IMG/VR virus record: IMGVR_UViG_3300021091_005099
Location: 49,994 to 113,993 of that record
Strand: one strand, 5' to 3'
Origin: a virus
Length of the DNA stretch: 64,000 nucleotides
The position numbers and the translations under genes were made by a program. The number at the start of each line of letters is the position of its first letter. Positions within the stretch are counted from its first letter, which is position 1. Shown here one piece after another: positions 15,488 through 21,224 of this stretch. The notes under the pieces were generated by a model. It was not told the DNA's origin. It made no database searches and worked only from the letters and a program-made list of their open reading frames with translations.

Positions 15488-16933
15488 TTATCCTCCTTCG
15501 AATAGTGAACTGAAGTTGTTCTTGCCCTTGCCGCCACCAGTGGCTCTCTGCCATCTGGTGCCCCTTATGTCTGCCAGGAATGATGTGGCGGAACTGATCA
15601 ACTCCATTGGTTTTTCCGACTCAAACACCTCCTTCACGAACGTGTTGAAATACAGTATGTTTCTCGGAACGAAATCGCTCATCTGATCTGTGTTGTCCGA
15701 TTCCTTGATCTTTCTCCAGTGTTTGGCTTCCGGTTGGTGCTTGATCATTTCTATGTCATTCATGTCATTGGCAATCTGTACAGCTCTGATGTGATTGTAT
15801 ACGTTGTGTGCCATCATTAATATATAACTGAAACTATCCCAAGAAGTTTTGCCTTCTTTGTTGTTTTTATTTAGGTCACCTTCTCCATACCAGCAAACAT
15901 CTCCCATGTGTAATCGATTACCGATAGCACTCTTGAATGGGAATGGTATGGTGCTGCCTTTCAATCTTTTGTCATCTGGTGCTTTCTCCATGATATAACT
16001 CCATCTCTTGGGAGTGAATAGATTGTGTGTGTACACTAAGCCATTGGCTGTGCTTAGGAAAGCGGATGCTGAATCAAAACTAATCGTGACATCTGGATTT
16101 ACATGTTTTCTTAACTGTCTCTGTATCTGTGTTAAGAAACAAGCCCAATCCAGTTGTGATGTGCCCAGCACGTGTATCCAATTTTTCTTGTCCAATTTCT
16201 TCTCATCTCTCATTATGACCAATCTTTTTAACAAGACTTCCATGTCGCACATGTTGATGCCACCCATTGCCCATCCTTCAAACTCAAAATCTTTGATGGC
16301 ATCATACCATGTTTGTGCCGTTTCCCAATCATCTCCTTGTAATACGTTCAAAAATTTAGTTTGTCCCAATCTGTTCTTTTGGAAGAATTTGTTGTTATAG
16401 ATTGTGCCATTTAGAGTGTCTTGAAAACTCTTCAATCCTGTTTTTGGAGAGTTTAATTCATCCGCTGCCCAGGTTGGCACGTCCAGCGTCATAGACCAGT
16501 CAGCGGTTAATTCTAACCAATTTAGAATATTGCTTCTAACTTTATTGGCTTTGTTACCTTCGAAATCCTGCCAATCAAAATTAATAACTCCTCGGCCTAT
16601 CTGATACCCACCCGAATCACCCACTATGGTAGAAAATTTTCTGTCTCTCTGTATACACATACTGTCAGCCACAGGTGCTTTTTCCACGTCTAGACAAGCA
16701 TGTCCTGCTGAATATAAACCCACATCATAGGTAAAATAACCTTTCTCTGGATTAAGAAAGTTTAATCCCTCCACATCATTCTCAAAACCTTTAGGTATTC
16801 TTTCTTTAGATATGTGATCGCCTTTCGCTCTCTGCTTGCTGATGAAGGTGTTGTAGAAATTGGATATGGCCGGCAAGAATCGGGCAAAGTCCCTGTTCAA
16901 AGGCCCTAGATGTTCCTGCCTGTTATCTGGCAT
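15488..16933 (-). CDS. dpdA: DpdA / TGT-fold 7-deazaguanine DNA transglycosylase
   Basis: DSGGYQ catalytic motif, MTLDVP, NVLQG, GWAMGG, IHVLG, SFDSAS; start 16933 overlaps the clamp stop (TGATG); in a FolE/QueD/QueE/YhhQ cluster. Confidence 0.8.
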   Translation of the reverse strand: MPDNRQEHLGPLNRDFARFLPAISNFYNTFISKQRAKGDHISKERIPKGFENDVEGLNFLNPEKGYFTYDVGLYSAGHACLDVEKAPVADSMCIQRDRKFSTIVGDSGGYQIGRGVINFDWQDFEGNKANKVRSNILNWLELTADWSMTLDVPTWAADELNSPKTGLKSFQDTLNGTIYNNKFFQKNRLGQTKFLNVLQGDDWETAQTWYDAIKDFEFEGWAMGGINMCDMEVLLKRLVIMRDEKKLDKKNWIHVLGTSQLDWACFLTQIQRQLRKHVNPDVTISFDSASAFLSTANGLVYTHNLFTPKRWSYIMEKAPDDKRLKGSTIPFPFKSAIGNRLHMGDVCWYGEGDLNKNNKEGKTSWDSFSYILMMAHNVYNHIRAVQIANDMNDIEMIKHQPEAKHWRKIKESDNTDQMSDFVPRNILYFNTFVKEVFESEKPMELISSATSFLADIRGTRWQRATGGGKGKNNFSSLFEGG

Positions 16934-18557: not shown

Positions 18558-21224
18558 TCATGCCACCTCGAACAATCTGTTGAACGTGTTGCTGCTTTCT
18601 GTGGATCTCACGTCCCATTCCAGCACACCAATCAGATTATCAATCTTGCCATCCAGCACACTCTGTTCCATGCCATCGGAATCAAACGGCAGTTGTTTGA
18701 ACCATTCCGGCAACCTCTGCTCATCCACTGGATATGCTATAGACGTGTATCCAAGGGGATTATTTCTTAATTTGCACACTATCACCTTGGCTCCATCCGT
18801 GATTGGCAGGCTGTATCTGTCGCCATACATGTCTCTGCAGATGTTCCAGTTGATCGAAGCTCTCACATGGCCAGGCATGTTGGCCTTGCCTTTCTTCTTC
18901 TCCTCTTCGTGATATTCTGTCACATTGTTGGCACGCTTGGGAGATCCTTTTTCCCAGCCCGGCCTGGATTTGAATTCACCCCGGAACTGCTTGATTCGAT
19001 CTAGCACTTCTGCCTCAGTTTTGCCTATCAGCACCAGATACAGTATGTCGCTCAAGAAGTCCTGTACGAATACCGGAGTGTCAGAACGCTTGAGGTCCAG
19101 ACCCATCGCTTTGACCTTACCTTCCTTGCCTGCCGTGTCCACACGCTCGCCCTCCTTGTCAAAATACAAGAGAGCGTATCTTTTTTTGGTTATGAACAGT
19201 CCCTTGCTGGCCACCAGTTCTCGGCCTGCACGTATCACGTCACCGCGGGTCTTGGGACAATGGAACGCTCGAGTCATGAATGCTGTGAATGTGCCATTGA
19301 CCTCTTCTGCTATCTTGTCATACAGGGCGATCACACTTTCCTTGTTCCACTGTATTTTTGCAGATTTTATATCATCCTGCAGCGTGGCGTAGGCCGAGAA
19401 ATACACGGAGTCAGTGTCACCGTAGATCACGCTCTCGCCCACGTGATCATATTTTCCTGCAATGATCTCGTTGGCCTTGGCAGCCATGTGTTGCGTGATG
19501 CATCTGCCGGTCAACGTCACTGATTGGCCTATGCGCATGTCAAAGAAGCGGCAGCCCGGATTCAATATCGCGCCATACAGCGAGTTTAGATTGATTTTTT
19601 TGACCAGCTGCCTCTTGTCCCAGAATTCTCTCTCTATTTCATTTTCTCCGCACTCGGACATCTTGTGCTGCATGTCTTTCCTCTCAGCATACCATTTCTT
19701 TAAAAGTCCAGGTATGACTCCTTCGAACTCATAGGTGAATATTGTTCCGTTGGCAGATATCATCCACTGCCTGTTGCCGTCGAACACAAGATCATGCAGC
19801 TGAGCTGCGCTCATCCTCACGCTGGTTCCATCCTCCCAATCAACAATCAATTCGGTGCCTTTGTCCTTGTCCATCACTGCTTGATATTCCCAACAACCAA
19901 ATTGTCCTTCCCATGCAGTGGCGAAGGACTTGCCTTGGTGCTTGGCCCTGTTTATCTCCGCTGATGTGATCACAGGACGTATCTGTCCCACTATTGTTTC
20001 CGGACCCATGTTCAGCGCTCGGATCACGGATGGATACAGCGAGTTGATGTCCACGGAGCCAATCCAGTCGTGTATGCCTTTCTTGGGATAAGCCACATAG
20101 GCCCCCGCCGCTGATTCAACAGGTGCTGACTCATCTCTCTTTGCCCTGCCAGGCACTATCATGCCCCTGCGATGTGCCTCGTTGATAATGGCCTGCTCAG
20201 TAACCGCCACTGCTCCCATGGTAGTGTCCAGCAACACAGTGTTTTGGTGTGCTATCTCATTGGCCAACTCAATAAATTTTAATTTCTTTTCCAATTTTGC
20301 CAACAGGTCGCAGTCCTGCCTGTTGTACTCTATGAACATGCCAAAGTCATTGTTGTACAGCTGGTCCAGCGATCCTTCATACACTGTCTTCTTCTCGTCC
20401 AATTCCCATTCACCTATGGCGTCCAGGCGGTAGCTGTGCCGCTCCTCGTAGGTGTATTTTCTATATAGTTCCAATAGGTCCAGATGCACTCTTCCAGTCA
20501 AATCATAACTGATCTGTTCCCTGCCAAATTTTTCAAATGTCCTCTTCTTAGGTTTTTCTCCCCAAAAACACAGTCTTCTTGTGTCATCGGAGCTCAATAC
20601 CTTCTGTATCCTGCCTACGACATAGGGTAGGTCATATCCTTCTGAGTTCCAGCCACTGATGACATCTCCCTCGTCCACCAGCGTGAGAAATGCGTCCAGC
20701 ATGTCTTTTTCTTTCTCGAACAGCATCACGTTGCTGAATCTCTCCACCTGCAGCCTGGCATCTGCCATGCTCAATTCCTTGGGCGGCACAGCAAACGTGA
20801 CCAGCTGATCGGTCCAGTTGAGATAACAGGTTATGGCGGTGATGGGCATGAATGGATCATCGGTGGTGGAATAGCCGCGTTGCGGGTCAAAGTCCACTTC
20901 GATATCAAAGAACACCACGTTGAGCTTGGGAGCATCCTTGCCCAGATAATTCTCCTCCAGGCAGCGGAACACAGGATTGATGTCCTGTTCAAACAATTTC
21001 TTGTTGCTCCTGATCTTCTGTTCTTTTATGAACTCCTTGAACGTGCTGCAGGTGACCTTCTGCAGTGTCTCTCCGTGTATGCTCCTGTGCTTGCCTCGGG
21101 CATCGGGATAGTAAAAAACATATCTTGCATCATAGTCAACGAACCGTCTCTGTCCATTGGGATCTCGCTCAACGACAAAAACTTTGTCGTCGTCTCTCCT
21201 GTAGAATGCGTCTATGTAGCTCAT
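18558..21224 (-). CDS. family B DNA polymerase (gp43-like)
   Basis: Exo motifs FDIEV, GWNSEGYD, YNRQD; polymerase motifs DINSLYPS, KINLNSLYG, YGDTDS, KKRY. Confidence 0.96.
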   Translation of the reverse strand: MSYIDAFYRRDDDKVFVVERDPNGQRRFVDYDARYVFYYPDARGKHRSIHGETLQKVTCSTFKEFIKEQKIRSNKKLFEQDINPVFRCLEENYLGKDAPKLNVVFFDIEVDFDPQRGYSTTDDPFMPITAITCYLNWTDQLVTFAVPPKELSMADARLQVERFSNVMLFEKEKDMLDAFLTLVDEGDVISGWNSEGYDLPYVVGRIQKVLSSDDTRRLCFWGEKPKKRTFEKFGREQISYDLTGRVHLDLLELYRKYTYEERHSYRLDAIGEWELDEKKTVYEGSLDQLYNNDFGMFIEYNRQDCDLLAKLEKKLKFIELANEIAHQNTVLLDTTMGAVAVTEQAIINEAHRRGMIVPGRAKRDESAPVESAAGAYVAYPKKGIHDWIGSVDINSLYPSVIRALNMGPETIVGQIRPVITSAEINRAKHQGKSFATAWEGQFGCWEYQAVMDKDKGTELIVDWEDGTSVRMSAAQLHDLVFDGNRQWMISANGTIFTYEFEGVIPGLLKKWYAERKDMQHKMSECGENEIEREFWDKRQLVKKINLNSLYGAILNPGCRFFDMRIGQSVTLTGRCITQHMAAKANEIIAGKYDHVGESVIYGDTDSVYFSAYATLQDDIKSAKIQWNKESVIALYDKIAEEVNGTFTAFMTRAFHCPKTRGDVIRAGRELVASKGLFITKKRYALLYFDKEGERVDTAGKEGKVKAMGLDLKRSDTPVFVQDFLSDILYLVLIGKTEAEVLDRIKQFRGEFKSRPGWEKGSPKRANNVTEYHEEEKKKGKANMPGHVRASINWNICRDMYGDRYSLPITDGAKVIVCKLRNNPLGYTSIAYPVDEQRLPEWFKQLPFDSDGMEQSVLDGKIDNLIGVLEWDVRSTESSNTFNRLFEVA

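Follow-up and report, generated by a model that had tools for sequence, protein, structure and literature searches.

Can an enzyme that exchanges bases in DNA be held on the replication clamp by the same kind of peptide that the DNA polymerase carries? The question is raised by a gene block in a 64,000-nucleotide stretch of viral DNA (positions 49,994 to 113,993 of IMG/VR record IMGVR_UViG_3300021091_005099; the whole stretch is called the window here), in which the gene for a protein resembling the base-exchanging transglycosylase DpdA begins on the stop codon of the gene for a sliding clamp. In T4-type phages, such a peptide enters a hydrophobic pocket between two domains of the trimeric clamp. 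A first-pass annotation of the window had proposed that the DpdA-like protein shares a C-terminal tail with the B-family polymerase, docks on the clamp through it, and swaps guanine for a 7-deazaguanine right behind the fork. Our analysis supports this interpretation, the docking being predicted from structural models: each of the refuting conditions in that annotation that could be examined by computation turned out in its favor. We consider it probable that this is a hitherto unannotated DpdA-like subfamily, held on the phage clamp so that guanine exchange is coupled to replication. That DNA is the substrate, which base is inserted, that the reaction is processive and that it takes place at the fork are points that we infer.

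The gene block and its shared C-terminal peptide

The window makes up the 3' 64 kb of a viral contig of 114 kb in IMG/VR (G000), whose completeness is estimated at 32%, and the source phage belongs to a very abundant, largely marine group of jumbo phages. On the minus strand, genes for a B-family polymerase, an S-adenosylmethionine (SAM)-dependent methyltransferase, the 245-residue clamp and the 481-residue DpdA-like protein follow one another in this order, and a clamp-loader-type gene lies elsewhere in the window (pLDDT, predicted local distance difference test):

18558..21224, minus strand: B-family (T4-type) DNA polymerase, 888 aa (Pfam DNA_pol_B 1.7e-36, exonuclease domain 6.6e-21, phrog_262 3.4e-196)
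18567..18590, minus strand: polymerase C-terminal motif NTFNRLFE, residues 879-886, presumed clamp-binding peptide (from the sequence)
17738..18556, minus strand: class I SAM-dependent methyltransferase (Pfam Methyltransf_23/11/25, E about 1e-8)
16933..17670, minus strand: PCNA/gp45-type sliding clamp protomer, 245 aa (by predicted fold)
16931..16935, minus strand: TGATG, clamp stop and DpdA-like start with a one-base overlap (read directly)
15488..16933, minus strand: TGT/DpdA-fold transglycosylase-like protein, 481 aa (by predicted fold and catalytic motifs)
15491..15544, minus strand: disordered tail, residues 464-481, Gly/Lys linker and motif (pLDDT <50)
15497..15520, minus strand: motif NNFSSLFE, residues 472-479, candidate clamp-interacting peptide (sequence, conservation, predicted complex)
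46635..47564, minus strand: clamp-loader-type AAA+ subunit (PF13177 above cut-off, G000 97090-97332, which is window 47097-47339)

The DpdA-like protein ends in ...GGGKGKNNFSSLFEGG and the polymerase in ...STESSNTFNRLFEVA; both C-termini, with the common N-x-F-x-x-L-F-E, thus read as the first-pass annotation had them, and in the DpdA-like protein the motif NNFSSLFE comes after a disordered Gly/Lys linker. Among the about 125 open reading frames (ORFs) of the 114-kb contig, these two proteins are the only ones with a C-terminal F-x-x-L-F-E on a flexible tail. Other candidates were rejected. A tandem paralogue that ends in NNFLRIYE (G000 42660-43829) has its motif in a helix that is conserved among the paralogues, and the paralogues as a group (G000 37296-43829) have F/W-rich C-terminal helices that lack the tail motif. 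A glycosyltransferase-like protein (G000 23713-24429) ends in YNLFV with no linker, and its ending is not kept in 47 relatives; it serves as a negative control. The paralogues are encoded upstream of the window by five tandem genes (G000:C1:37296-43829; 389-481 aa) with similar aromatic-rich C-terminal helices.

Among homologues, the tail holds down to about 27% identity. Throughout 80 related IMG/VR loci of the window clade (76-100% protein identity), the C-terminus of the DpdA-like protein is always GGGKG[KT]NNFSSLF[ED], after which come either no further residues or two variable ones, and [NS]TFNxLF is retained in the polymerase. These tails are written in 51 (DpdA-like) and 43 (polymerase) distinct nucleotide versions, with synonymous changes at every codon, including AGT/TCA serine switches; because the peptide stays invariant across 51 versions with synonymous changes everywhere, we conclude that it is under strong purifying selection. 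The family as a whole is large, with more than 5,700 relatives at 90% clustering and at least 955 cluster representatives at 50% identity. Among cultured phages, relatives occur in Pseudomonas phage PA5oct and its kin at 40% identity, in Sinorhizobium phage Phosso at 29% and in Vibrio phage 2.275.O at 27%, and in these records the protein is labelled hypothetical. Family-wide, x-[LIM]-F occurs in 40 of the 85 representatives that extend beyond the last helix; the 16 whose chain stops with this helix all lack it.

The two tails also vary together, as was seen when the C-termini of DpdA-like and polymerase proteins from related phages were aligned, a check that the first-pass annotation had named. 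The window clade pairs polymerase FNxLF with DpdA-like FSSLF. A second set of 80 loci comes from relatives of a homologue with 55% identity, and the polymerase, clamp and DpdA-like genes are again syntenic there; polymerase and DpdA-like tails in this set pair as NTFNLLFE/GFNSLFE, NTFESLFA/HNMLFA and EAFDKLFD/TFNSLFD. A clade with divergent clamps (24-30% identical to the window clamp) combines polymerase GF[VI]DDLF or GYIDDIF with AVHDIF, SVNDLF or SVDDIF; both tails have shifted there to V/I-x-D-[LI]-F, and the clamp pocket segments 38-44, 123-131 and 238-245 differ too. Among cultured phages, PA5oct has a polymerase ending ...HFDSLFGW and a DpdA-like protein (gp316) with ...SFNSLFDVD before a 35-aa acidic extension, Vibrio phage 2.275.O has ...NNTDLFDW and ...NNNDLFGW, respectively, and the Phosso copy of the DpdA-like protein ends ...EGLF. 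In a permutation test over 13 clamp clusters of <70% identity, a clustering that reduces shared ancestry, true polymerase/DpdA pairs scored 13.0 by BLOSUM versus 8.3±1.3 for shuffled pairs (p=0.0002).

Further short C-terminal elements came to light in the relatives. The acidic extension of the DpdA-like protein of PA5oct (L001:8007-9629), also present in the P0124 clade (L083-L162), ends in a recurring D/E-x-L-D/E-x-L-E (for example ...DDKLDELEQ and ...EKLTELEQGL), which looks like a second conserved short motif and is absent from the window clade. A census of clamp clients in a 196-kb and a 235-kb relative gave few candidates. The 235-kb relative encodes a 118-aa acidic protein ending ...EQLSKKLF (G003:C1:82831-83187), which in size, charge and terminal hydrophobic peptide recalls the T4 late-transcription co-activator gp33, another clamp client. 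The 196-kb relative encodes a 234-aa GT8-like glycosyltransferase ending ...KKELINLFSS (G001:C1:26372-27076), which resembles the polymerase tail SLINELFS of another clade and has no orthologue in the window contig.

The order of polymerase, clamp and DpdA-like gene is kept in 160/160 IMG/VR loci whose flanks reach far enough, and also in PA5oct and Vibrio phage 2.275.O. The TGATG overlap of clamp stop and dpdA start that had been claimed for 16931-16935 is real: the plus strand reads CATCA, the clamp stop TGA occupies 16935-16933 and the DpdA-like ATG 16933-16931, with one base in common. This overlap is confined to some clades, and elsewhere the two genes lie 9 to about 1,300 bp apart or have small ORFs inserted between them. 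A promoter and terminator scan of 15000-21600 gave the same result as shuffled sequences and is uninformative either way on co-transcription. The SAM methyltransferase (17738-18556), between polymerase and clamp in the tightly packed block, has no FxxLF tail. In PA5oct, the polymerase gene (L001:1617-6843) is interrupted by a Hef-like homing endonuclease gene and is thus split into two coding sequences.

The sliding clamp and the predicted docking of the tail

The 245-aa protein has no match in Pfam or among PDB sequences, and its sole PHROG match is unnamed. Its AlphaFold2 model (pLDDT 92) has the form of a two-domain clamp protomer. With this model, the top 50 Foldseek matches are all PCNA, and VIA-align gives PCNA at Z 17.9 (root-mean-square deviation (rmsd) 3.3-3.7, 221-225 residues aligned), T4 gp45 (6drt) at 16.6 and bacterial beta clamps at 11.7-15.6. 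The top 38 rows of that search (Z 10.6-17.9) hold nothing but sliding clamps and processivity factors with the clamp fold, comprising PCNAs, gp45, 9-1-1 subunits, bacterial beta clamps and herpesvirus polymerase accessory subunits; further down, Z declines, with PCNA fragments at 8.4 and lower. Judged by its predicted fold, the product of 16933-17670 is a PCNA/gp45-type sliding clamp, as the first-pass annotation had it, and a clamp-loader-type AAA+ gene is present in the same window (about 46.6-47.6 kb; PF13177 above cut-off). The clamp homologue of PA5oct (gp314) is annotated as a 'structural protein' on the basis of virion mass spectrometry, and in one IMG/VR relative (L035) the end of the clamp ORF is unrelated, apparently through a frameshift or assembly error.

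The complex of the clamp with enzyme residues 440-481 was predicted together with three controls. It scored 0.61 (three runs: 0.61, 0.63 and 0.54) versus 0.01 for the best control, with a contact agreement between runs of at least 47% and a partner pLDDT of at least 41. The mark for such scores is reached by 58/80 solved complexes and 2/110 mismatched pairs, a calibration that holds only roughly here because our own alignments were used for the complex prediction; and since many complexes of this type have been solved, the pass shows likeness to them and not binding of this copy. In the predicted interface, clamp residues 39-42, the interdomain connector 123-130, 222-224 and the C-terminal strand 239-244 face enzyme residues 470-481, with F474, L477 and F478 in the canonical clamp pocket at the lowest error. 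The proposed docking of the DpdA tail on the clamp is thus borne out at the level of structure prediction. The predicted pocket is the site at which the PIP (PCNA-interacting protein) box and the RB69 gp43 peptide bind (PMC2988020, PMC6212786).

The arrangement resembles that of the T4/RB69 clients in that a short hydrophobic-acidic peptide, placed after a variable unstructured linker, is common to the polymerase and another client, and in that the pocket, here predicted, is made by the interdomain loop and the clamp C-terminus. The T4 gp43 clamp peptide is EKASLDFLFG (PMC6212786), and the tails of gp43, gp33, gp55 and DNA ligase have LDFLF in common and are interchangeable (PMC2988020, PMC6212786). 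Unlike this L-D-F-L-F, the consensus here is [FVH]-x-x-[LIM]-F-[DE]; the clamp shares its fold with gp45 and has no detectable sequence similarity to it; and the second client would be a base-exchange enzyme, a kind of protein that PMC2988020 and PMC6212786 do not list as a T4 clamp ligand.

Some other common partner of the two tails in place of the phage clamp, such as the host beta clamp, the phage clamp loader or a single-stranded-DNA-binding protein, which would then bring the enzyme to sites of replication or repair, is unlikely in our judgment. Ligands of host beta clamps carry QL[SD]LF-like peptides, and many tails of the family (...NLSLFEF, ...DNSLFTI, ...EGLF) resemble these bacterial beta-clamp-binding peptides; moreover, the Phosso copy adjoins genes for a primase and a helicase as well as a polymerase gene annotated as DnaE-like, and the clamp model also matches bacterial beta clamps (Z 11.7-15.6). 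However, the phage encodes its own clamp and clamp loader, and its B-family polymerase bears the same tail, which is the clamp ligand in T4/RB69. In addition, where the tail differs between clades, so do the pocket residues of the phage clamp, and the complex predicted with the phage clamp stands up to its controls.

The enzyme and its deazaguanine gene neighborhood

The DpdA-like protein, too, was refractory to sequence searches. The 481-aa protein has no match in Pfam, PHROG, NCBIfam or PDB sequences, and neither phmmer nor a 65-sequence profile recovered a tRNA-guanine transglycosylase (TGT) among PDB sequences. The window protein does not rise above the gathering score of the Pfam TGT family (PF01702), of which only 2 of 65 relatives are faint matches (E 0.0045); its TGT/DpdA membership therefore rests on fold and catalytic motifs. 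Single-protein scans with P0130 and P0168 (viral contigs) and P0166 (metagenomes) gave no matches. By tblastn with E up to 5, no phage with a described DpdA1-4 was matched; the matches are PA5oct-like phages, Phosso, Vibrio 2.275.O and, weakly, P. putida and Xanthomonas jumbo phages.

An AlphaFold2 model built with an alignment of 65 diverse homologues is confident (pLDDT 93, predicted template modelling score 0.92), with disorder at residues 464-481 only. All of its top 50 Foldseek matches are Zymomonas TGT (E about 1e-8). An all-against-all structural search gave ArcTGT at Z 18.7 (rmsd 5.0, 300 aligned), QTRT2 at 17.5, bacterial TGT at 17.4, the DNA insertase DpdA for 7-cyano-7-deazaguanine (preQ0; 7UI4) at 15.9 and Cap10 at 14.4, while unrelated TIM barrels reached 12 at most. 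Viral fold neighbors are a 'TGT' of Achromobacter phage Motura, a protein of Vibrio phage nt-1 and, weakly, a phiST protein (E 7.5e-4). Across the 65 homologues, D106, S107, G109 and D287 are invariant, and G108, Q111 and D151 nearly so. When the family profile was aligned with E. coli TGT by hhalign (83% probability, E 8.5e-6), GDSGGYQ paired with TDSGGFQ, LDVP with FDEC (MTLDVPT/MIFDECT), LQG with IQG, and FDSA with FDCV (ISFDSAS/DMFDCVM); among the positions so aligned are the three aspartates that serve E. coli TGT as general acid/base, in base recognition and as nucleophile. The same three aspartates are invariant and essential in DpdA, where Asp95 and Phe99 correspond to the general acid/base Asp and the base-stacking aromatic residue of the GDSGGYQ motif (PMC10164549). 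By its residues and predicted fold, the 481-aa protein is a catalytically intact enzyme of the TGT/DpdA superfamily, in a subfamily outside Pfam; the DpdA/TGT label, for which sequence searches had failed, is thus upheld by the predicted fold and the three catalytic aspartates. In P. putida jumbo phages, a distant TGT-like protein (Pseudomonas phage vB_PpuM-Illi-2, L241:6857-8227; 22% identity, ADSGGFQ motif) has no FxxLF peptide at its end; a long basic tail rich in Lys, Arg and Ser takes its place and may be another way of holding DNA.

Within 10 kb downstream of the DpdA-like gene lie four genes that bear on deazaguanine metabolism:

14310..14732, minus strand: QueD-like protein with the DpdL signature LGYPHRHMF (LxxxHRHxF; from the sequence, no Pfam match)
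10765..11517, minus strand: GTP cyclohydrolase I, FolE (Pfam PF01227, 5.7e-37)
8121..8810, minus strand: YhhQ/Vut_1-family transporter (Pfam PF02592, 6.6e-21)
6529..7389, minus strand: QueE-like radical SAM enzyme (30% identity, E 3.5e-26, to a PA5oct protein annotated as 7-carboxy-7-deazaguanine synthase; weak Radical_SAM/Fer4_12 matches)

The YhhQ family acts in preQ0 transport and the uptake of 7-deazapurine precursors. The LxxxHRHxF signature has been assigned to DpdL, a proposed decarboxylase of 7-carboxy-7-deazaguanine (Cui et al., PMC10516641). The module also holds a purine phosphoribosyltransferase, a protein of the GMP-reductase/IMPDH family, a cupin, a GalE-like epimerase and a GT-B-like glycosyltransferase. 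Comparable genes accompany the DpdA-like gene in distant relatives, with QueE 3 kb away in PA5oct and QueF two genes away in Vibrio phage 2.275.O. PA5oct DNA resists restriction enzymes with G in their sites, the authors of that study suspect a modified G, and PA5oct-like phage DNA is targeted by END nucleases as G-modified (PMC12191111). The composition of the module (6529-14732), with no clear QueC or canonical QueD, is unusual and could point to a salvage-fed or sugar-decorated deazaguanine. Outside the window, a cluster at G000:C1:23713-27508 that may belong to the same pathway encodes two DxD-motif glycosyltransferase-like proteins, a weak QueC-like protein (PF06508, 18.5 bits) and a radical SAM/SPASM enzyme.

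The protein could also bind the clamp and yet not insert a 7-deazaguanine into DNA, being a tRNA modifier, a glycosylase-like or regulatory clamp ligand (for example one that competes with the polymerase for the clamp), or an enzyme for another base. The subfamily's distance from all characterized DpdA proteins (no tblastn match; phiST at E 7.5e-4), its unconserved zinc-site cysteines, the missing or weak QueC, and the extra sugar-nucleotide and purine-salvage genes in the cluster would fit such a role. We nevertheless regard it as improbable, given that there is little or no variation in the three catalytic aspartates and the DSGG[YF]Q motif, that a clamp tether is sensible only for a DNA-directed enzyme, that the gene lies next to QueE, QueF, FolE or DpdL-like genes in three distant phage lineages, and that PA5oct shows G-specific restriction resistance. 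That the tails resemble each other with no shared function, by chance or as generic stability or solubility tails, is very hard to credit and already disfavored: the motif is short, with three fixed hydrophobic positions, and a loose regular expression matches other proteins too, but the peptide is invariant over 51 nucleotide versions in a protein that is overall 76-100% identical, its pairing with the polymerase tail persists in lineages as distant as 27% identity (permutation p 0.0002), and the negative-control ending YNLFV is not kept in relatives.

A probable clamp-tethered transglycosylase: counter-evidence, proposed mechanism and meaning

Several observations weigh against a clamp-tethered guanine exchange. 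Sequence methods do not place the protein in TGT, Pfam giving nothing and hhalign only 83%, and the canonical zinc-site cysteines of TGT are not among the invariant columns of the 65 homologues, the hhalign alignment ending before that region. There is no QueC in the window, and the sole candidate on the contig is a weak QueC-like match outside the window and below the Pfam cut-off; the inserted base may plausibly be of the 7-deazaguanine (DG) type or a further decorated deazaguanine. As for the tail, only 40/85 extension-bearing representatives show x-[LIM]-F, the motif is internal in PA5oct and many relatives, where a 20-55-aa acidic extension follows, and it is degenerate in a few relatives (L114, L121 and L142). 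Shared ancestry was reduced and not fully removed in the co-variation test. Apart from the rough calibration, part of the docking score may come from solved PCNA/gp45-peptide complexes that the model has memorized, and the docking covered the DpdA tail alone. Finally, the DpdA-like gene of Phosso is far from the clamp gene; since, in addition, the overlap of the two genes is clade-specific, their adjacency is common but translational coupling is not essential.

Altogether, we favor a model whereby the disordered tail would dock the transglycosylase on one free pocket of the DNA-loaded clamp, in the manner of a toolbelt. A trimeric clamp would offer three pockets, with the polymerase on one and the transglycosylase, on a Gly/Lys leash of roughly 10 residues, on another; alternatively, the enzyme may use clamps left behind on the DNA. 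It would then slide along newly made duplex DNA and swap guanine for a 7-deazaguanine derivative, with the neighboring FolE, QueE-like, DpdL-like and YhhQ-like genes providing for its synthesis or import. Tethered in this way, a base-flipping enzyme that is itself non-processive would gain one-dimensional access to fresh duplex.

Recruitment of this kind has parallels. Eukaryotic DNMT1 and UNG2 are recruited to PCNA by a PIP box; in concept, they too are DNA-modifying or base-excising enzymes that act on nascent DNA from a replication clamp, while the domain of life, the enzyme class and the motif differ. Another parallel is the T4 alpha-glucosyltransferase, a phage DNA-modifying enzyme on the replication clamp: it co-purifies with gp45, and modification has been proposed to be concomitant with replication (Sommer et al. 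2004, cited and re-tested in PMC13216743). The latter, a 2026 paper, finds the ratio of alpha to beta glucosylation to be significantly modulated by expression level and enzyme activity, rather than by differences in clamp affinity (PMC13216743). The T4 enzyme glucosylates 5-hydroxymethylcytosine already in DNA, whereas the DpdA-like enzyme would excise and replace a base, and the accessible text of PMC13216743 describes no shared polymerase-like tail for it. The first-pass annotation was not aware of a description of such a mechanism for DpdA, and our full-text literature searches likewise turned up neither a paper making a substantive connection between DpdA and sliding clamps nor a 'DpdA5'; its novelty has to be narrowed in so far as clamp-bound DNA modifiers are known, T4 alpha-glucosyltransferase with gp45 being one. 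The idea of a clamp-tethered DNA modifier is itself known, and what is new is its application to deazaguanine transglycosylases and the recognition of a large unannotated subfamily.

Among the DpdA proteins, the bacterial enzyme (Salmonella Montevideo, 7UI4) requires the DpdB ATPase, which has been modelled with a tunnel able to encircle double-stranded DNA (PMC10164549). The DpdA-like protein shares with it the TGT fold and the three aspartates, and is too remote from it in sequence for Pfam TGT or BLAST; where the bacterial enzyme has DpdB as its DNA-associated accessory, there is no DpdB here, and the proposed accessory is the clamp, reached via the C-terminal peptide. Like the phage enzymes DpdA1-DpdA4, and especially DpdA3, the protein is TGT-like, hard to detect by sequence and encoded beside FolE, QueD/DpdL and QueE near a polymerase gene. 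It differs in that BLAST detects no similarity between it and the phages for which a DpdA has been described, and the phiST protein is a weak fold neighbor. Going one step further, we tentatively suggest that the clamp might be the processivity and loading factor of this subfamily in place of the DpdB ATPase, making exchange replisome-coupled and processive, a possibility that we hold with some doubt. If so, it would explain the very high or complete replacement of G in some phages, and would amount to a 'modification toolbelt' in a large, mostly marine group of jumbo phages.

In the current literature, DpdA insertion is a post-replicative event, and the basis of its range of efficiency is unexplained, with <0.1% of G modified by bacterial DpdA and 100% by DpdA3 (phiST, CP220) (PMC10516641). 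A clamp-binding tail would be a concrete mechanism for such differences. Moreover, DpdA3 and DpdA4 have not been made to work heterologously (PMC10516641), and the tail suggests why such enzymes may fail in E. coli when the cognate clamp and loader are missing. Finally, a large family of transglycosylases is flagged that includes the PA5oct-like Pseudomonas phages of therapeutic interest, and because PA5oct can be cultivated, the hypothesis is directly testable.

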